Below are positions 1 through 5,891 of a DNA stretch of 5,891 nucleotides, in pieces. Under the pieces are notes generated by a model that was not told where the DNA came from, did no database searches, and saw only the letters and a list, made by a program, of their open reading frames with translations. The stretch lies in NCBI RefSeq assembly GCF_054482525.1, contig NZ_JBTHVG010000008.1; one strand, 5' to 3'. Each line of letters begins with the position of its first letter. Positions within the stretch are counted from its first letter, which is position 1. The stretch is from a plasmid. Made by a program: the position numbers and the translations under genes.

Positions 1-414
1 TCTGTCAGCGAGGCTGTGACATCAAACGAGACGAAAATCAGAGACGCTATAGCCCTGTTCACAGTCTCGACAGAGAAATCGCTGGAAAAACACCGGGAAG
101 GGGTGAAAGAGGCGATGATGCAGCACAGGAAGGACGTGTTAAAGCTGGCAGGGAATACGGGCATGATGTTACTGGGGATAGTCTTTCTTCTGTTTACCGC
201 GAGTGGCGGGACGCTCTGGTATCTTGGCGGACGGATACAGACGAACCTGGAAGAAATCAGGAAGCAGGAAGAGACATTGCAGAAACTGAACGCGAAGACA
301 TGGGGCGTGGAGTTTGTGCAGGACGGGAACAGGAAATTTCTGGTCCTTCCGTACGGGAAATCAGCAGAGATGATTCCCTTTCAGGGGAAAGAGTGGGTAC
401 ATCTGAAGGAGTGA
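1..414 (+). CDS. mbeB: Mobilization protein MbeB, 3' portion (5' partial at window edge; the first 35 codons lie at 5787..5891 if the window is circular)
   Basis: Frame 1 is open from nt 1 to TGA at 412-414. The track ORF 16..414 starts at an internal GTG. The translation contains one hydrophobic transmembrane-like segment (MMLLGIVFLLFTASGGTLWYLGG). The gene is nested out of frame inside mbeA, as in ColE1. Joined to 5787..5891 it gives 172 aa, the length I recall for ColE1 MbeB. Confidence 0.75.
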   Translation, partial: SVSEAVTSNETKIRDAIALFTVSTEKSLEKHREGVKEAMMQHRKDVLKLAGNTGMMLLGIVFLLFTASGGTLWYLGGRIQTNLEEIRKQEETLQKLNAKTWGVEFVQDGNRKFLVLPYGKSAEMIPFQGKEWVHLKE

Positions 415-761
415 CACAGAGTGACAGAGCTGGAAACACATTTGCTGAACGCCTTAGAGCAGCTGCAACAGGACTATATGCAGCGGCTGAGCGAATGGGA
501 GAGCGCCTTCGTGGAATTGCAGAAGATGTTTTCGCTTACGCAACGGGACAACGCGATGCTGAACGAGCGGGTCATGCAGTTGAGTCAGCAGGTGCAGCAC
601 TTGAGCGAGCAGACAGAACGCTTGAGCCAGTTATACAGCGAGAACTGGAGATAAGAGAGGAACGGTTGATGCAGGAGCGCGAACATGCGTTATCCCTGGA
701 ACGGGAGCGTCAGCTGGAAATACAGGAACGCACACTGGATGGCCCTTCGCTGGGATGGTGA
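3..761 (+). CDS. mbeA: Relaxase MbeA, C-terminal portion (continues from 5099..5891 across the window ends)
   Basis: I translated frame 3 codon by codon from nt 3 and found no stop until TGA at 759-761. The track reports only 300..761 because it begins at the first ATG. The single base left over at 5891 plus nt 1-2 completes one codon (gtc), so the two parts are in frame and sum to 517 aa. Confidence 0.8.
   Translation, partial: CQRGCDIKRDENQRRYSPVHSLDREIAGKTPGRGERGDDAAQEGRVKAGREYGHDVTGDSLSSVYREWRDALVSWRTDTDEPGRNQEAGRDIAETEREDMGRGVCAGREQEISGPSVREISRDDSLSGERVGTSEGVTQSDRAGNTFAERLRAAATGLYAAAERMGERLRGIAEDVFAYATGQRDAERAGHAVESAGAALERADRTLEPVIQRELEIREERLMQEREHALSLERERQLEIQERTLDGPSLGW
421..654 (+). 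CDS. mbeD: Mobilization / entry-exclusion protein MbeD-like, 77 aa
   Basis: GTG start at 421, directly after the mbeB stop and nested inside mbeA in a different frame. The product is a small glutamine/leucine-rich, probably coiled-coil protein (MTELETHLLNALEQLQQDY...). Position and size match the ColE1 mbeD arrangement as I recall it. Confidence 0.65.
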   Translation: MTELETHLLNALEQLQQDYMQRLSEWESAFVELQKMFSLTQRDNAMLNERVMQLSQQVQHLSEQTERLSQLYSENWR

Positions 762-966
762 AACCATGAAAAATGGCAGGTTCATTGGATTAAGGCGGAC
801 TAATGTGCTCTGTGCCATCTGGTTGCATAGGTATTCATACGGTTAAAATTTATCAGGCGCGATCGTGGCAGTTTTTCGGGTGGTTTGTTGCCATTTTTAC
901 CTGTCTGCTGCCGTGATCGCGCTGAACGCGTTTTAGCGGTACGTACAAACTGTTGTTATGTTAAAT
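760..966. other. cer-like Xer (XerC/XerD) multimer-resolution site: accessory sequences plus core at 938..966
   Basis: The stretch 846-946 (gcgatcgtggcagtttttcgggtggtttgttgccatttttacctgtctgctgccgtgatcgcgctgaacgcgttttagcggtacgtacaa) closely matches ColE1 cer as I remember it. Core: XerC-arm-like GGTACGTACAA (938-948), central region actgttg (949-955), XerD-arm-like TTATGTTAAAT (956-966). Each arm is one mismatch from the cer arms GGTGCGTACAA and TTATGGTAAAT. Confidence 0.7.
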
Positions 967-988
967 ACTGATGGGCTTTCCTGCTTGA

Positions 989-1873
989 TTATCCGAAGAG
1001 CAATCCCCAAACACTTTTAGCTACAGAAACAATGGCTTTCTTGGCGACTTTAGCCACTGACGCTATTGGTTTAGGTAGTACGGTGTCTATTATATCATCA
1101 ATAGCTCTATCTACGGTGTCTGCGAACCCGTCCTTTGCCGTTTCTACAATTTCTTTTGTTTTTATTTCGTCTTTTACTTGATGCACCACTCCGCTCTGTG
1201 CTTCCTTTGGGAGCGATCTTACTATTGCCTCCACTAACCTTGAAATGTTATAACCTTCATTCGCAGATACAGATATAACGGGATGTTTGGTAAAACCGAA
1301 TCGTTCTATTAAGTATTCTTCCTTTTTTCTAATATTTATTTGTTGTGAGGGTGATGGTTGGTGTTTTTCTTCATCCCATTCGCGGAATGGCTCAATCTTG
1401 TCGACTTGGTTTAAAACAAACAACACTTTTTCATCACCACCAACTGGTTTTAAAACATTTTTATAAAAGTGCTCATCAGCTGAAAATGCTCGATCATCAC
1501 CTTTAACAACCCAAAGCACCAGATCTAATTCTGGGAGAAGATTTTTATACAACTCTTCATATTCTATATCTTTAGCTTCATTTTCACCTACACCTGGTAT
1601 ATCTATTATTTTAATTGTTCTATCACCAAATGAAATTATTAATTCCTGAACCTTTCTCGTGCATGCTTCTACATCACTCACTGCACATACATTACCTTTA
1701 AAGATAGAATTACATAGGCTGGATTTACCAGCGCCGGTTTTACCCATAATCCCTATTACTGGTTCGTAATTAATAACATTTCTAATTTTGTTATAGACAG
1801 ACTTGCGAATCTCTTTAGGTAGAACATCCACAGCTTCTTTGATTAATTTTATACCTTGCGTATTGTTTTCCAT
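989..1873 (-). CDS. P-loop GTPase of the YfjP/YkfA/YeeP (MMR_HSR1-like) family with C-terminal amphipathic tail, 294 aa from the MENNTQ start
   Basis: The track ORF is 989..1960 on the minus strand. I prefer the ATG at 1873 (MENNTQGIK...): it has a GAGGA about 11 nt upstream and avoids overlap with the upstream gene, which ends at 1909. Motifs read in the translation: G1 GIMGKTGAGKSS, G3 DIPG, G4 NQVD, G5 SVSA. Conserved blocks ELDLVLW, DEHFY and QPSPSQQ resemble the E. coli CP4-prophage GTPases YkfA/YfjP/YeeP as I recall them. The C-terminus (PKPIASVAKVAKKAIVSVAKSVWGLLFG) looks amphipathic. Confidence 0.8.
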   Translation of the reverse strand: MENNTQGIKLIKEAVDVLPKEIRKSVYNKIRNVINYEPVIGIMGKTGAGKSSLCNSIFKGNVCAVSDVEACTRKVQELIISFGDRTIKIIDIPGVGENEAKDIEYEELYKNLLPELDLVLWVVKGDDRAFSADEHFYKNVLKPVGGDEKVLFVLNQVDKIEPFREWDEEKHQPSPSQQINIRKKEEYLIERFGFTKHPVISVSANEGYNISRLVEAIVRSLPKEAQSGVVHQVKDEIKTKEIVETAKDGFADTVDRAIDDIIDTVLPKPIASVAKVAKKAIVSVAKSVWGLLFG

Positions 1874-1908
1874 AGTTACTATTTTCCTCATTTTGTTGTT
1901 CATATGAA

Positions 1909-2343
1909 TTAACGGAAGCTTGTTTTTCTTTCTTCTTTTTCTTCCCCGCATACAGAACATTTGTAATGGCGATAGGTATCAGAACTCCCACTAAGATACC
2001 AATTGTGTCTTTTACCATGAACTCGCTCTGTAAAACATCTCACGCATCTTTCTTTCACATTGCAATAATCATCGACTGCAATTTCAACAAATCTTTCATG
2101 CCTTTCGCCTTCTTGTTCAGCGCCACAGTCGATACACTTTTTTACAGTTGTGCACTTGAAATCGTATTTATAACTTTCCTCTCCGTATTTATGCTGTTCT
2201 TTTTGTATAGTGCGATTGCAGTCAGGGCATAGTTTAGAATATTTACAAGTCTCACCATCAATAAGCTTATAGTTTCCTCCGTGTATACCTACCCCACACT
2301 TAGCCTTGATTGCTGCATTTTTTATGCTATCCCAAAAGCCCAT
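1909..2343 (-). CDS. Cysteine-rich small protein (144 aa) with three tandem CX5CX2C motifs plus a terminal CX2C; putative multi-zinc-ribbon protein
   Basis: ATG at 2343 (minus strand) is preceded by GGGAGA at about 7 nt spacing. The translation has 12 Cys arranged as CKYSKLCPDC, CTTVKKCIDC, CNVKERCVRC and CSVC, spaced about 30 aa apart. It ends 35 nt before the GTPase start, so the two are probably co-transcribed. I recognise no family. Confidence 0.7.
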   Translation of the reverse strand: MGFWDSIKNAAIKAKCGVGIHGGNYKLIDGETCKYSKLCPDCNRTIQKEQHKYGEESYKYDFKCTTVKKCIDCGAEQEGERHERFVEIAVDDYCNVKERCVRCFTERVHGKRHNWYLSGSSDTYRHYKCSVCGEEKEERKTSFR

Positions 2344-2389
2344 GGAAAAATCTCCCTACGATTAGTTGATATAAGTTGAACAATTCATC

Positions 2390-2440
2390 GACATGATTAT
2401 ACACGTATAGTGTGTGGATATATAAAAATGAGTATGGATT
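2390..2440 (-). promoter_or_regulatory. Candidate sigma70 promoter for the Cys-rich/GTPase gene pair (perfect -10 TATAAT on the minus strand at 2396..2401)
   Basis: The minus strand reads ...acgtgTATAATcatgtcg... about 50 nt upstream of the 2343 start codon. The -35 region is AT-rich and weak (TATATA-like). This is an inferred position within a 227-bp AT-rich intergenic gap (2344..2570). Confidence 0.3.
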
Positions 2441-2570
2441 TATGCTCTGTATAATGTTTTTGTTATGTTAAATATAGCGCTGAAAAAGTGGGGGCACTGG
2501 ATAAACTTCGTGTTTTTCCCGCAAAGATAGTATTGGAAAGTCATTGTCTAATTCATCCAAGATAAATATT

Positions 2571-3383
2571 TTACGAATTTGTGAGTTTGCTTGAGATTTT
2601 TATATATTCAGCCTTTATTAACTCATTGCCATATTTTTTCTCGAGTCTTTTAACAATGAAATGACCTCGAGCCATATCTTGATAATAGTCGGTAAACATT
2701 GTGTTTAATGTGGCTCCAGTTAGTGCTCCAATAACGGGAACGACTTGAGCTGCCATTTTTTCCGTAATAACTATACCAAATCTTGTTGCAACTTTTTCTA
2801 TTAACGAAGCTAACCATTTTCCTGTTTGTACTGAAGATGCGTTTTTGACAGCAATGTTAGAAATTTCTTTGGATAAATCTTGTACGATCTCGGCAGTCAA
2901 ACTTCTTGTTGCATAGTATGCAGTATTAGCTGCATCATCGTCATCAGATGGTCCTCCCAAGGAAAACACCTCTAAGCAGGCCAGTTTGGTATCAATATTA
3001 TCTAGCTCAAAACCTTCACTTCTTGCTATGTCAGCAATTGAACGAAGCATAATTGTCGTTGAAACCGGTAACTCAATTGCTAATGCAGAAAAGCCAAAAG
3101 CGCCACCAATGGCTCCAGATACGGCCGCAAAGAATTTATTTGTCTTAGTTGATGCTATTCGGTTAGGTTCATTGTCTAGACTCCATAAGGCCGCATCAGC
3201 AGCTTTGTGGAGCGATTTTTCTACTAGACTATAAATTTGCTCTTCTGCCCCTTTGGGAAGTTTACTCATTAAGTAATCTATTGGGGTTCCAACTAATTGG
3301 GTTAATGTTTCAGTAATTGTATCTTGTTCTAATAATTCTACGGCCCTTTCTAAAGCCCGCAGATCTCCTTCTTCAAGATGCAT
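2571..3383 (-). CDS. EcsC-family-like protein (putative), 270 aa
   Basis: Long minus-strand ORF. Its ATG at 3383 is preceded by AAAGGA at about 9 nt. It has Gly/Ala-rich hydrophobic segments (AAVSGAIGGAFGFSALAIELPVSTTIMLRSIADIARSEGF and VVPVIGALTGATLNTMFTDYY) that I associate with EcsC-family proteins. That assignment is from memory and unverified. Confidence 0.6.
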   Translation of the reverse strand: MHLEEGDLRALERAVELLEQDTITETLTQLVGTPIDYLMSKLPKGAEEQIYSLVEKSLHKAADAALWSLDNEPNRIASTKTNKFFAAVSGAIGGAFGFSALAIELPVSTTIMLRSIADIARSEGFELDNIDTKLACLEVFSLGGPSDDDDAANTAYYATRSLTAEIVQDLSKEISNIAVKNASSVQTGKWLASLIEKVATRFGIVITEKMAAQVVPVIGALTGATLNTMFTDYYQDMARGHFIVKRLEKKYGNELIKAEYIKISSKLTNS

Positions 3384-3536
3384 ATAATGAATCCTTTATG
3401 AATCAATCGATAGTCTACTTTTGTAAGTGATTCGTCTTGGGAGCTTACCTTGAGCGAGTTCAGTGATTCAATAGGCGAGATGCCGACATCATTGTTGTCT
3501 GTGAAGCAGGAGTGATGAAAAGATCAAAGGATCCTC

Positions 3537-3565
3537 TTGTGATCCTTTTTTTCTGCGCGTAATCT
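3537..3565 (+). promoter_or_regulatory. RNAII (primer) promoter: -35 TTGTGA (3537..3542), 17-bp spacer, -10 TAATCT (3560..3565)
   Basis: Positional and sequence equivalent of the pBR322/pMB1 RNAII promoter (TTGAGA - 17 bp - TAATCT). The transcription start is predicted at G3573. Confidence 0.7.
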
Positions 3566-3574
3566 GCTGCCTGT

Positions 3575-3682
3575 AAACAAAAAAACCACCGCTACCAACG
3601 GTGGTTTGTTTGCCGGATCAAGAGCTACCAACTCTTTTTCCGAAGGTAACTGGCTTGGTGGAGCACAGATACCAAATACTGT
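3575..3682 (-). ncRNA. RNAI antisense copy-number control RNA (about 108 nt)
   Basis: The minus strand beginning at 3682 reads acagtatttggtatctg..., the RNAI 5' end. It is complementary to the 5' end of RNAII. Its promoter (-35 TTGAAG, -10 CTACACT) lies at 3689..3718 on the minus strand. Confidence 0.85.
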
Positions 3683-3688
3683 CCTTCT

Positions 3689-3718
3689 AGTGTAGCCGCA
3701 GTTAGGCCACCACTTCAA
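3689..3718 (-). promoter_or_regulatory. RNAI promoter (-35 TTGAAG, -10 CTACACT on minus strand)
   Basis: The reverse complement of 3689..3718 reads ttgaagtggtggcctaactgcggctacact, matching the pBR322 RNAI promoter apart from one base in the spacer. Confidence 0.65.
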
Positions 3719-4119
3719 GAACTCTTAATATCTCAATCCACCTTGTCCAGTTACCAGTGGCTGCTGCCAGTGGCGCTTTGTCGTGTCTTACCGGGTTGGA
3801 CTCAAGACGATAGTTACCGGATAAGGCGCAGCGGTCGGGCTGAACGGGGGGTTCGTGCACACAGCCCAGCTTGGAGCGAACGACCTACACCGGGCCGAGA
3901 TACCAACAGCGTGAGCTATGAGAAAGCGCCACGCTTCCCGAAGGGAGAAAGGCGGACAGGTATCCGGTAAACGGCAGGGTCGGAACAGGAGAGCGCACGA
4001 GGGAGCCACCAGGGGGAAACGCCTGGTATCTTTATAGTCCTGTCGGGTTTCGCCACCTCTGACTTGAGCGTCGATTTTTGTGATGCTCGTCAGGGGGGCG
4101 GAGCCTATGGAAAAACGCC

Positions 4120-4140
4120 AGCGGCGCGGCCTTTCGTTGC
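4120..4140 (+). other. ColE1-type origin of replication (RNAII-to-DNA transition)
   Basis: The sequence aaaaacgccagcggcgcggcctttcgttgcc corresponds to the pBR322 ori switch region (aaaaacgccagcaacgcggcctttttacgg). Confidence 0.65.
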
Positions 4141-4369
4141 CCTTTGCCTTTTTGCTCACATGTTCTTTCCGGCCTTATCCCCTGATTCTGTGGATAACCG
4201 TATTACCGCCTTTGAGTGAGCCGGCACCGCTCGCCGCAGCCGAACGACCGAGCGTAGCGAGTCAGTGAGCGAGGAAGCGGAAGAGCGCCGGAACGTGCAT
4301 TTTCTCCTTACGCATCTGTGCGGCATTTCACACCGCATATAGCGCTCTTTTCTTACAATCTGCACTGAT

Positions 4370-4440
4370 GCCGCATGGTTAAGCCAGTATACACTCCGCT
4401 ATCGCTACGTGACTGGGTCATGGCTGCGCCCCGACACCCG
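4370..4440 (-). other. oriT / bom (basis of mobility) with nic region near 4381..4385
   Basis: The reverse complement of 4376..4440 reads cgggtgtcggggcgcagccatgacccagtcacgtagcgatagcggagtgtatactggcttaacc, the pBR322 bom sequence, which contains the nick site in the TGGCTTA context. It lies between the origin and rom, as in pBR322. Confidence 0.65.
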
Positions 4441-4529
4441 CTAAAACCTGCTGACGCGCCCTGACGGGCTTGTCTGCTCCCGACATCCGCTCACAGGCAA
4501 GCTGTGACCGTCTCCGGGAGCTACATGTG

Positions 4530-4721
4530 TCAGAGGTTTTCACCGTCATCCCCGAAGCGTGAGAGGCAGCTGCGGTAAAGCTCATCGGCGTGCTCGTGAA
4601 GCGATTCACAGATGTCTGCCTGTTCATCTGCGTCCAGTTCGTTGAGCTTCTCCAGCAGCGTTAATGTCTGGCTTCTGATAAAGCGGGCCATGTTAAGGGC
4701 GGTTTTTTCCTGTTTAGTCAC
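4530..4721 (-). CDS. rom: Rom/Rop, RNA-one modulator (63 aa)
   Basis: The translation MTKQEKTALNMARFIRSQTLTLLEKLNELDADEQADICESLHEHADELYRSCLSRFGDDGENL differs from pBR322 Rop, as I recall it, at only two residues. It has a GTG start with GGAGG upstream and is convergent with RNAII, as in pBR322. Confidence 0.9.
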   Translation of the reverse strand: MTKQEKTALNMARFIRSQTLTLLEKLNELDADEQADICESLHEHADELYRSCLSRFGDDGENL

Positions 4722-4761
4722 TGATGCCTCCGTGTAAGGGGGTATTTCTGTTCATGGGGTA

Positions 4762-5109
4762 ATGATACCGATGAAACGCGAGAGGATGCTCACGATACGG
4801 GTTACTGATGATGAACATGCACGGTTACTGGAACGCTGTGAGGGTAAACAACTGGCGGTATGGATGCGGCGGGTCTGCCTGGGTGAGCCGGTTGCCCGTT
4901 CCGGGAAGCTGCCGACACTGGCACCGCCGTTACTGCGTCAGCTGGCTGCCATCGGGAATAACCTGAATCAGACGGCGAGGAAGGTGAACAGCGGGCAGTG
5001 GTCTTCCGGTGACCGGGTTCAGGTGGTGGCCGCACTGATGGCCATCGAGAGAGAGTTGCGCAGCTTACGGCAGGTCGTCAGGGAACAGGGAGCGCGGGAT
5101 GATAGTTAA
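4762..5109 (+). CDS. mbeC: Mobilization accessory protein MbeC (MobC family); start codon uncertain among 4762, 4771 and 4786
   Basis: The track ORF begins MIPMKRERMLTIRVTDDEHARLLERCEGKQLAVWMRR..., which is the reading frame whose first 30-odd codons survive as the mob remnant in pBR322. The stop at 5107-5109 overlaps the mbeA start. A start at 4786 would give the 107 aa I recall for ColE1 MbeC. Confidence 0.8.
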   Translation: MIPMKRERMLTIRVTDDEHARLLERCEGKQLAVWMRRVCLGEPVARSGKLPTLAPPLLRQLAAIGNNLNQTARKVNSGQWSSGDRVQVVAALMAIERELRSLRQVVREQGARDDS

Positions 5110-5891
5110 ATTTCATGCCAGGGGAAAAGGCGGTGGCAGTGGTCCGGTTGATTACCTGCTGGGAAGGGAGCGTAACCGGGAAGGGGCAACGGTGCTTCAG
5201 GGTAATCCGGAAGAAGTCCGGGAACTCATCGATGCCACGCCATTTGCGAAGAAATACACGTCAGGTGTTCTGTCGTTCGCGGAGAAGGAACTGCCGCCGG
5301 GAGGACGTGAAAAAGTGATGGCGAGCTTTGAGCGTGTACTGATGCCCGGTCTCGAAAAAAATCAGTACAGCATCCTGTGGGTTGAGCACCAGGACAAGGG
5401 ACGGCTTGAGCTGAATTTTGTCATTCCGAACATGGAGCTACAGAGCGGAAAACGCCTCCAGCCGTACTATGACCGCGCAGACAGGCCGAGAATTGATGCC
5501 TGGCAGACGCTGGTGAATCACCATTACGGGCTGCATGACCCGAATGCCCCGGAGAACCGCAGGACGCTGACACTCCCTGATAACCTGCCGGAAACGAAAC
5601 AGGCGATTGCTGAGAGCGTTACACGGGGGCTTGATGTGCTTTACCGTACCGGAGAGATAAAAGACCGTCAGGATGTGATTCAGGCACTCACAGATGTGGG
5701 AGTTGAGGTTGTCAGGGTGACGCGAAGCAGTATCAGCATTGCAGACCCGAACGGCGGAAGGAATATCAGGCTGAAAGGAGCATTTTATGAGCAATCTTTT
5801 ACAGACGGGCGCGGAGTTCGAGAAAAAGCTGAAAGAGAGAGCCGAATCTACAGAGAAAATGCTGAACGACGAGTTCAGGAAGCTCGGCGAG
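5099..5891 (+). CDS. mbeA: Relaxase MbeA (MOB-HEN / MOBP5 type), N-terminal portion, 3' partial at window edge
   Basis: This ORF is absent from the supplied track because it has no stop inside the window. I translated by hand from ATG 5099 in frame 2 and found no stop through 5891. The product begins MIVKFHARGKGGGSGPVDYLL (catalytic Tyr19 context) and contains the HEN signature in WVEHQDKGRLELNFVIPN. It overlaps the mbeC stop by 11 nt. Confidence 0.9.
   Translation, partial: MIVKFHARGKGGGSGPVDYLLGRERNREGATVLQGNPEEVRELIDATPFAKKYTSGVLSFAEKELPPGGREKVMASFERVLMPGLEKNQYSILWVEHQDKGRLELNFVIPNMELQSGKRLQPYYDRADRPRIDAWQTLVNHHYGLHDPNAPENRRTLTLPDNLPETKQAIAESVTRGLDVLYRTGEIKDRQDVIQALTDVGVEVVRVTRSSISIADPNGGRNIRLKGAFYEQSFTDGRGVREKAERESRIYRENAERRVQEARR
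5787..5891 (+). CDS. mbeB: MbeB, 5' portion (35 codons), nested in mbeA in the +1 frame; continues at 1..414
   Basis: ATG at 5787 is preceded by AAGGAG at 8-nt spacing. Frame 3 is open from there to the window end with the last codon complete at 5889-5891, so it joins frame 1 at nt 1 without a shift. Confidence 0.7.
   Translation, partial: MSNLLQTGAEFEKKLKERAESTEKMLNDEFRKLGE

Follow-up and report, generated by a model that had tools for sequence, protein, structure and literature searches.

The stretch of plasmid DNA analyzed here, which we call the window (5,891 nt, whole length), carries a ColE1-type backbone for replication, multimer resolution, and mobilization. The other 2.6 kb, with 37% G+C, are a cargo region that encodes a YkfA-like GTPase, a Cys-rich orphan open reading frame (ORF), and an EcsC-family protein. 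The features are, in window coordinates:

1..414, plus strand: 3' part of mbeB; the joined product has 172 aa and is 95.9% identical, without gaps, to ColE1 MbeB
1..761, plus strand: 3' part of mbeA, starting with bases 2 and 3 of codon 265 and ending with the stop codon at 759-761
421..654, plus strand: mbeD, nested in mbeA; 77 aa, 100% identical to ColE1 MbeD
760..966, plus strand: cer, with accessory sequences and the core GGTACGTACAA-ACTGTTG-TTATGTTAAAT at 938-966
989..1873, minus strand: GTPase of 294 aa from the annotated start, ORF open to 1960; Pfam MMR_HSR1, 5e-17
1909..2343, minus strand: Cys-rich protein of 144 aa, no family match
2444..2473, plus strand: GCTCTGTATAA-TGTTTTTG-TTATGTTAAAT, a degenerate second site that resembles an Xer core and is oriented in the same direction as the core of cer
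2571..3383, minus strand: EcsC-family protein of 270 aa; Pfam EcsC, 110.5 bits
3537..4135, plus strand: RNAII promoter, RNAII primer, and origin, with a probable start at ~3573 and a probable RNA-to-DNA switch at ~4125-4135
3577..3680, minus strand: RNAI, antisense copy-number regulator; full-length match to the model Rfam RF00106
4290..4529, no strand assigned: probable bom/oriT region, lying between the origin and rom with approximate limits, inside the 92.9% ColE1 alignment
4530..4721, minus strand: rom/rop, 63 aa; Pfam Rop, 127.6 bits; 96.9% identical to ColE1 Rop
4786..5109, plus strand: mbeC, 107 aa from the annotated start, ORF open from 4762; 95.3% identical to ColE1 MbeC
5099..5891, plus strand: 5' part of mbeA, codons 1-264 and the first base of codon 265; ATG at 5099, open to the edge
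5787..5891, plus strand: 5' part of mbeB, 35 codons, nested in mbeA in a different frame

Two overlapping genes, mbeA and mbeB, leave the window at its right edge and resume at its left edge. On a doubled copy of the sequence, G at nt 5891 and TC at nt 1-2 form a sense codon (GTC, Val265), and the joined mbeA encodes 517 aa with its stop ending at 761; mbeB joins 5787..5891, exactly 35 codons, to 1..414 and encodes 172 aa. The first-pass annotation had proposed both joins and had given the two lengths as those of ColE1, and indeed, ColE1 (NC_001371.1) encodes proteins of 517 and 172 aa. Re-calling ORFs on a copy rotated to start at nt 3517, a check suggested there, recovered both genes at these lengths. 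The ends of the window join without gap or overlap, and both reading frames are kept across the join. Furthermore, the joined MbeA aligns end-to-end with ColE1 MbeA at 94.2% identity, with neither gap nor duplication at the junction, and gives one continuous match to NCBIfam relax_MbeA_E1 (residues 1-509, 869 bits, cut-off 500). The Pfam MbeB_N match in MbeB (residues 1-52, 76.8 bits) crosses the junction at residue 35/36. Relatives are annotated with a 519-nt MbeB coding sequence, and the exact 517-aa MbeA is called as a single gene on contigs, mostly of 5-10 kb, in 173 blocks of the assembly collection.

Public assemblies opened elsewhere allowed a check of the junction. Three records of 5,891 bp each are exact rotations of the window with 0 mismatches: pMV-v4-SK2-O-b from Klebsiella pneumoniae, Switzerland (NZ_CP085865.1, identical over 5,891 nt after rotation and reverse complementation), and Escherichia coli pMD28 from Canadian lambs (NZ_OZ464531.1 and NZ_OZ462649.1, identical over 5,891 nt after rotation). 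Their openings lie at window-equivalent positions 1701, 2772, and 4071, respectively, of their own coordinates; they carry the same gene set and differ from the window only in linearization point, strand, and annotation choices. Eight further records of 5,878-5,892 bp, among them NZ_JBUXMG010000004.1 (also 5,891 bp, 10 substitutions relative to the window), cross the 5891/1 junction with neither insertion nor deletion; the other seven, aligned over their full length, have no indel at or near it. A 300-nt junction probe found a contiguous match in records opened elsewhere (in relative L007, the opening falls 8 nt short of the probe's end).

Circularization errors at contig ends are common in small plasmids, and the relatives vary in length by 1-13 bp; both points would fit a closure that is an assembly artifact, with a few bases missing or duplicated at the 5891/1 join. 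However, the length differences all map elsewhere (2457-2459, 2490, 4035, 4201, 4366, and 4434-4443), none of them within 1 kb of the junction, the junction probe is contiguous in independent records, and the frames of two overlapping genes are both intact across the join. In addition, self-comparison of the window found no terminal overlap or terminal repeat, any internal repeats do not exceed 35 nt, and the backbone functions are therefore present in single copy. The artifact is already largely refuted, and its probability is practically nil.

ColE1 plasmids are known to form multimers, and the window might also be a repeat unit or a segment of a larger molecule, for example a multimer of tandem copies or a cointegrate that includes another ColE1-like plasmid, with no free 5.9-kb monomer. 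Indeed, in CP100018.1 (12,915 bp), most of the plasmid is joined to another ColE1-like replicon and IS91-family transposases are present, and some metagenome scaffolds link it to other ColE1-like plasmids with ToxN or EcoRII-type genes. Yet 14 free-standing plasmids of 5,878-5,892 bp have been deposited, and an arbitrary cut of a non-repeating larger molecule would not rebuild two genes in frame from its ends, without gap or overlap. The unit of any multimer would still be 5,891 bp, as seen in metagenome contig ERZ28521449 NODE_1402, a self-repeat with a period of exactly 5,891 nt and 100% identity over 3,736 nt. We consider a molecule without a free monomer highly improbable.

With a probability of about 0.97, we therefore read the window as one complete unit of a 5,891-bp ColE1-type circular, multicopy, mobilizable plasmid, linearized arbitrarily inside the overlapping mbeA/mbeB genes; the in-frame joins and the records opened elsewhere confirm what the first-pass annotation had claimed. 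Every check suggested there agreed with the claim when carried out on public sequence. Its further claim, that no sequence is missing from the replicon, is supported by the same-length records and by the gapless MbeA and MbeB. What closes here is the sequence, and from this closure the molecule would be expected to be physically circular. Whole-replicon status means that mbeA and mbeB, though split, are intact, that no gene is missing, and that circular coordinates should be used for any other finding in the window. The result is right but unremarkable, as the plasmid had already been sequenced and deposited, and plasmids of 5,878-5,892 bp are carried by 13 E. coli genomes and by K. pneumoniae and Salmonella records. 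Its importance is mainly bookkeeping, and the biology, from ColE1 replication and copy-number control to cer/Xer resolution and MbeA-dependent mobilization, is that of the textbook.

The relation to ColE1 (6,646 bp) is close over ~3.3 kb. Window 3517-5891 plus 1-948 is collinear with ColE1 585-3919 at ~93-96% nucleotide identity (92.9% for 3517-5890 against ColE1 585-2971, 96.4% for 1-948 against ColE1 2973-3919) and includes the RNAII/RNAI origin, bom, rom, mbeC, mbeA with the nested mbeB and mbeD, and cer. MbeA, MbeB, MbeC, MbeD, and Rop have the same lengths as in ColE1 (517, 172, 107, 77, and 63 aa) and align without gaps at 94-100% identity. In contrast, the colicin E1, immunity, lysis, and exc1/exc2 genes of ColE1 are absent and replaced by the cargo.

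RNAI scores 68.6 bits against RF00106 (gathering score, 47), occurs once in the window, and is complementary to the 5' end of the RNAII primer transcript. An Rfam search at a permissive E-value found nothing beyond RNAI, and a sub-threshold STnc240 match at 3547-3613 was dismissed. Because a strict sigma-70 consensus scan of 3380-4800 flagged no promoter, not even that of RNAII, the RNAII promoter is placed only by analogy with pMB1/ColE1, from which we take both the promoter, TTGTGA-17 nt-TAATCT, and the position of the origin. A 52-aa ORF at 3702-3860 (minus strand), labeled "replication initiation protein" by PGAP, lies inside RNAII and is without a Pfam domain. With RNAI, the homology of RNAII and the origin without a plasmid-encoded Rep protein, and Rom/Rop, which is optional in this replicon family and present in ColE1, the replicon is of ColE1 type; a sequence-identical record is typed rep_cluster_2350 in PLSDB, as is ColE1. 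By homology with ColE1, replication would be primed by RNAII, transcribed on the plus strand from ~3573 and processed at the origin near 4130, and antisense RNAI (3680 to 3577, minus strand) together with Rom would hold the copy number down.

The stretch from ori to rom is collinear with ColE1, so that homology predicts a bom here; its position at 4290..4529 is presumably that of the established ColE1 and pBR322 maps. This stretch is the most divergent part of the plasmid in comparison with close relatives, and a search for inverted repeats in the bom region found only one 9-nt pair (4488-4510).

The joined MbeA has Y19, H97, E104, and N106, the predicted catalytic tyrosine and H-E-N motif III by which relaxases of this kind are reportedly defined (Varsaki et al. 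2003). These residues and the relax_MbeA_E1 match point to a MOBP5/HEN relaxase of the ColE1 MbeA type; the HEN group is named in PMC8683028. The accessory set is arranged as in ColE1: mbeA contains mbeB and mbeD and is preceded by mbeC, at identical lengths and 95-100% identity. MbeC matches Pfam MobC and NikA-like families, and MbeD matches Pfam MbeD_MobD (121 bits) and NCBIfam plas_excl_MbeD (120 bits). If the proteins act like their ColE1 homologs, and all biochemical activities of the plasmid are predicted in this way, the HEN-type MbeA would nick bom/oriT with the help of MbeB and MbeC, followed by transfer by a co-resident conjugative plasmid, and MbeD may act in mobilization and exclusion.

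Several RefSeq records, three of them sequence-identical to the window, label mbeA a truncated pseudogene: in the annotation of NZ_OZ464531.1, NZ_OZ462649.1, NZ_AP027605.1, and NZ_JBUXMG010000004.1, mbeA has 321 nt and is described as "incomplete; missing C-terminus". For pMV-v4-SK2-O-b and pMD28, either the PLSDB gene table has no mbeA or the gene carries a pseudogene flag. Taken at face value, the plasmid would be complete but mobilizable only with a relaxase supplied in trans. However, all 517 codons are open, with neither a frameshift nor a stop in mbeA, the alignment with ColE1 MbeA is gapless, and the predicted catalytic residues are intact. In NZ_CP041419.1 (99.3% identical), PGAP/RefSeq annotates the full 1,554-nt mbeA as intact and omits the nested mbeB and mbeD instead; the pseudogene label therefore stems from the way annotation handles genes that overlap and lie within one another. 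We reject the pseudogene and regard decay of mbeA as very unlikely. The inconsistent annotation of mbeA in public records could make automated surveys under-count self-mobilizable ColE1 plasmids.

A cer-type site has a core with a central region of 6-8 nt and ~180 bp of accessory (ArgR/PepA) sequence upstream. The core in the window aligns with the ColE1 cer core, and XerC arm, central region, and XerD arm are all present; the sequence upstream belongs to the 1-948 block of ColE1 homology, which stops inside the central region. With core and accessory sequence in place, the site is of the cer type, and multimers would be resolved there by host XerC/XerD with ArgR and PepA, as in ColE1. The central region is 7 nt long (ACTGTTG) compared to 8 nt (TTAAGGGA) in ColE1, and the XerD arm is TTATGTTAAAT compared to TTATGGTAAAT; the XerD arm of the window is identical to that of dif. 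That every core ColE1 function occurs exactly once, as first annotated, holds for ori, rom, bom, the mbe genes, and the full cer; only the full site is unique, because the degenerate Xer-core-like sequence at 2444-2473 had been overlooked. This second site has a perfect XerD arm and a poor XerC arm. An exact direct repeat of 15 nt links the two (953-967 and 2460-2474), and a shared 14-mer occurs twice in the window compared to 0 times in 200 shuffles. All relatives checked for it (L002, L007, L008, and L017) retain the second site, and in two of them a deletion of TTT extends the repeat common to both sites to 17 nt.

As for the cargo, the GTPase is ~44% identical to E. coli YkfA-type GTPases (tblastn), and the neighborhoods of its distant relatives revealed no shared partner genes. 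The Cys-rich ORF had no match in Pfam, NCBIfam, or PADLOC and is found in PLSDB in this plasmid lineage only, apart from one weak match (29% identity) on a Pseudomonas plasmid. A defense-system call from PADLOC was rejected, the matches being weak (GTPase to LeoBC/LeoA, 7.8e-12; EcsC to PDC-S29, a candidate defense family, 2.7e-10).

Small ColE1-type plasmids exchange modules at Xer sites and via oriT (Tran et al. 2012, cited in PMC6764390 and PMC8683028), and Xer-flanked modules are described in Acinetobacter plasmids (PMC7399989). The window resembles such cases in that its ColE1 homology breaks inside the cer core, a second XerD-arm site in direct orientation brackets the GTPase module, and a recombinant patch spans bom-rom-mbeC. 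Unlike in Xer-exchanged modules, the second predicted site has its poor XerC arm, and no excision product was found: a 300-nt query for the hybrid junction of a cer x second-site deletion was not covered to at least 80% by any record in 5,426 E. coli genomes, and in PLSDB the right flank of the second site occurs only in full-length relatives. A pdif-module-like, Xer-flanked mobile module would have two complete XerC/XerD sites around its cargo and recur in other settings; the GTPase and Cys-rich module is, moreover, confined to this plasmid lineage, and we do not class it as one. It is imaginable, though doubtful, that segment 967-2443 (GTPase and Cys-rich ORF) was inserted by Xer recombination into an EcsC-bearing ColE1 plasmid, that 2444-2473 is the scar or a still-active partner of cer, and that the three cargo genes form an uncharacterized defense or competition module. 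Such a module could explain how the exact plasmid comes to occur, across several continents, in E. coli, Salmonella, and Klebsiella of animal, food, and human origin.

ColE1-like plasmids of 3.27 kb that bear an EcsC gene (e.g., NZ_CP033763.1) share the EcsC gene, the origin, and the rom region with window 2577-4721 at 83-92% identity. They are without mbe genes and without the GTPase/Cys-rich module, and their EcsC protein has 279 aa compared to 270 aa in the window. In these plasmids, the EcsC gene (~91% identity to that of the window) adjoins the origin, and they also have a cer-like core with a 7-nt central region.

Our analysis supports the interpretation that the 5,891-nt window is a complete plasmid opened inside the overlapping genes mbeA and mbeB. 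On the doubled sequence, mbeA opens with an ATG at 5099 and runs through 264 codons to the right edge with one base left over; this base (G5891) and nt 1-2 (TC) form codon 265 (GTC, Val265), and the frame stays open past the join until a stop codon whose last base is 761, for a protein of 517 aa. Likewise, mbeB starts at 5787, has 35 full codons up to the edge, and continues through 1..414 for a total of 172 aa. Both joined frames had been described in the first-pass annotation and are confirmed here, and the lengths given there for ColE1 are indeed those of the reference NC_001371.1 (MbeA, 517 aa; MbeB, 172 aa). After rotation to nt 3517, just 5' of the RNAII promoter, both genes were recovered among the longest called ORFs of the molecule. 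The alignment of joined MbeA with ColE1 MbeA has neither gap nor duplication at junction residue 265, and the NCBIfam model relax_MbeA_E1 gives one match to the joined protein (residues 1-509, 869 bits, with a cut-off of 500). Furthermore, the Pfam MbeB_N match (residues 1-52) spans the junction in mbeB. MbeA carries the catalytic Tyr19 and the "HEN" motif H97/E104/N106, whose definition reportedly goes back to Varsaki et al. 2003. PMC8683028 describes the MOBP5/HEN grouping.

Three deposited 5,891-bp plasmid records are exact rotations of the window with 0 mismatches: pMV-v4-SK2-O-b of Klebsiella pneumoniae from a Swiss veterinary clinic (NZ_CP085865.1, as reverse complement) and pMD28 of Escherichia coli from Canadian lambs (NZ_OZ464531.1 and NZ_OZ462649.1). 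Window nt 1 lies at their record-oriented positions 1701, 2772, and 4071, respectively, and therefore, each record holds the join internally. Another record of 5,891 bp, NZ_JBUXMG010000004.1, differs by 10 substitutions. Seven further records from E. coli and Salmonella (5,878-5,892 bp, 96.7-99.4% identity) are opened elsewhere, one of them (L007) 8 nt before the end of our 300-nt junction probe, and the probe matched contiguously in all seven. Their few indels (2457-2459, 2490, 4035, 4201, 4366, and 4434-4443) are not near the junction. This agrees with the proposal that no sequence is missing at the join: the three exact rotations and the seven relatives run through it without an indel. In the assembly collection, 173 blocks have contigs, mostly of 5-10 kb, on which the exact 517-aa MbeA is called as a single gene, and the metagenome contig ERZ28521449 NODE_1402 (11,223 nt) has a self-period of exactly 5,891 nt, with 100% identity over 3,736 nt. 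In a self-comparison, the ends of the window do not overlap, and internal repeats of >35 nt are absent. Because of this evidence from records, contigs, and self-comparison, a gap or duplication at the join, or an origin of the window as a fragment of a larger, non-repeating molecule, is effectively excluded at the sequence level.

The plasmid consists of a ColE1-like backbone and a cargo region, with the following features:

Features of the 5,891-bp plasmid
3537-4135, plus strand: predicted RNAII promoter, transcript, and origin, with the start at ~3573 and the origin at ~4130 by analogy with pMB1/ColE1
3577-3680, minus strand: RNAI, single copy (Rfam, 68.6 bits)
~4290-4529: putative bom/oriT, placed by collinearity with ColE1 alone
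4530-4721, minus strand: rom
4786-5109: mbeC
5099..761, through the join: mbeA
5787..414, through the join: mbeB, nested in mbeA in another frame
421-654: mbeD, nested in mbeA in another frame
~760-966: cer, core at 938-966
within 989-3383, minus strand: GTPase (MMR_HSR1), ~44% identity to YkfA-type GTPases
within 989-3383, minus strand: 144-aa Cys-rich protein without a family match, essentially limited to this plasmid lineage
within 989-3383, minus strand: EcsC-family protein by Pfam (110.5 bits), with a weak match to the PADLOC candidate PDC-S29

The backbone (3517-5891 plus 1-948), which has 54% G+C, aligns collinearly with ColE1 585-3919 (93-96% identity), and MbeA (94.2%), MbeB (95.9%), MbeC (95.3%), MbeD (100%), and Rop (96.9%) align with their ColE1 counterparts over the full length without gaps. 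The colicin, immunity, lysis, and exc genes of ColE1 are replaced by 949-3516 (2,568 nt, 37% G+C), which encodes the three cargo proteins. ColE1 plasmids are generally built in this way, with a backbone that is conserved and a region of low G+C that varies (PMC5864857). The plasmid is a member of a textbook family and already deposited; only the second Xer-like site described below and the three-gene cargo are mildly novel. Small plasmids outside this lineage carry related GTPases as cargo, too, namely a 4.8-kb plasmid of Col156 type and a 5.1-kb plasmid from Aeromonas. From the homology to ColE1, RNAII would prime replication, RNAI and Rom would set the copy number, and host XerCD, ArgR, and PepA would resolve multimers at cer; MbeA, together with MbeB and MbeC, would nick bom, and the transfer apparatus of a helper plasmid would then move the plasmid.

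The first-pass annotation had counted every core function exactly once. This holds for the backbone, which is single copy in the self-comparison and by RNAI, but the window has a second, degenerate Xer-core-like sequence at 2444-2473. The cer core reads GGTACGTACAA-ACTGTTG-TTATGTTAAAT; its central region (949-955) has 7 nt instead of the 8 nt of ColE1 cer, as is also the case in 3.27-kb ColE1-like plasmids with EcsC (TACGGGA). Homology to ColE1 ends within this central region, as would be expected if the segment downstream had been exchanged by Xer recombination. The second site, GCTCTGTATAA-TGTTTTTG-TTATGTTAAAT, has the same orientation as the cer core and shares with it a 15-nt exact direct repeat, which a TTT deletion in two 97% relatives extends to 17 nt; a 14-mer of the two sites occurs twice in the window versus none in 200 shuffles. 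Its XerD arm is perfect and its XerC arm poor; the upstream flank does not align with cer, and no accessory sequence of the cer type was recognised there. The two sites bracket the segment with the GTPase and the Cys-rich ORF, and in the 3.27-kb plasmids, the EcsC gene stands by itself beside ori. Both findings would fit a GTPase module that was inserted through Xer recombination, which is offered as a lead; for small ColE1-type plasmids, such a route has been suggested (Tran et al. 2012, cited in PMC6764390 and PMC8683028). Neither a deletion product of recombination between the two sites in public genomes nor the GTPase module in a second context was found.

Compared with the 99.4%-identical 5,892-bp plasmids, 35 of the 41 differences cluster in 4290-4875 (bom-rom-mbeC), which indicates that a patch between oriT and the mob genes is recombinant. 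The closest match to this patch elsewhere in PLSDB is in 5,055-bp plasmids (98.2% identity). The 10-nt segment 4434-4443 (ACACCCGCTA) is missing from the 97% relatives and resembles a short tandem duplication or deletion within the bom-rom spacer.

Plasmids of this type are present in 13 of 5,426 complete E. coli genomes. The identical 5,891-nt sequence in K. pneumoniae from the Swiss clinic and E. coli from the Canadian lambs implies recent spread between genera. In one E. coli assembly, ECL27829, the plasmid has two entries. In a 12.9-kb record with IS91-family transposases (L009, CP100018.1), it is fused to another ColE1-like replicon, and in metagenome scaffolds (L020, L022), it is joined to ColE1-like plasmids with ToxN or EcoRII-type genes; these fusions could reflect true cointegration or chimeric assembly via shared ori/rom sequence.

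PGAP treats mbeA in two ways in identical or near-identical sequences. In four RefSeq records (L010, L017, and the identical L015 and L016), it is labelled a truncated 321-nt pseudogene, and the nested mbeB and mbeD are kept; in L011 (NZ_CP041419.1), it is annotated as an intact 1,554-nt gene, and both nested genes are dropped. Since the frame is open, we reject the truncated pseudogene and regard the label as an annotation artefact. Two short PGAP calls without a Pfam domain are probably spurious: a 52-aa "replication initiation protein" (3702-3860, minus strand) inside RNAII/ori and a 53-aa "mobilization protein" (685-846, plus strand) that overlaps the mbeA 3' end and cer.
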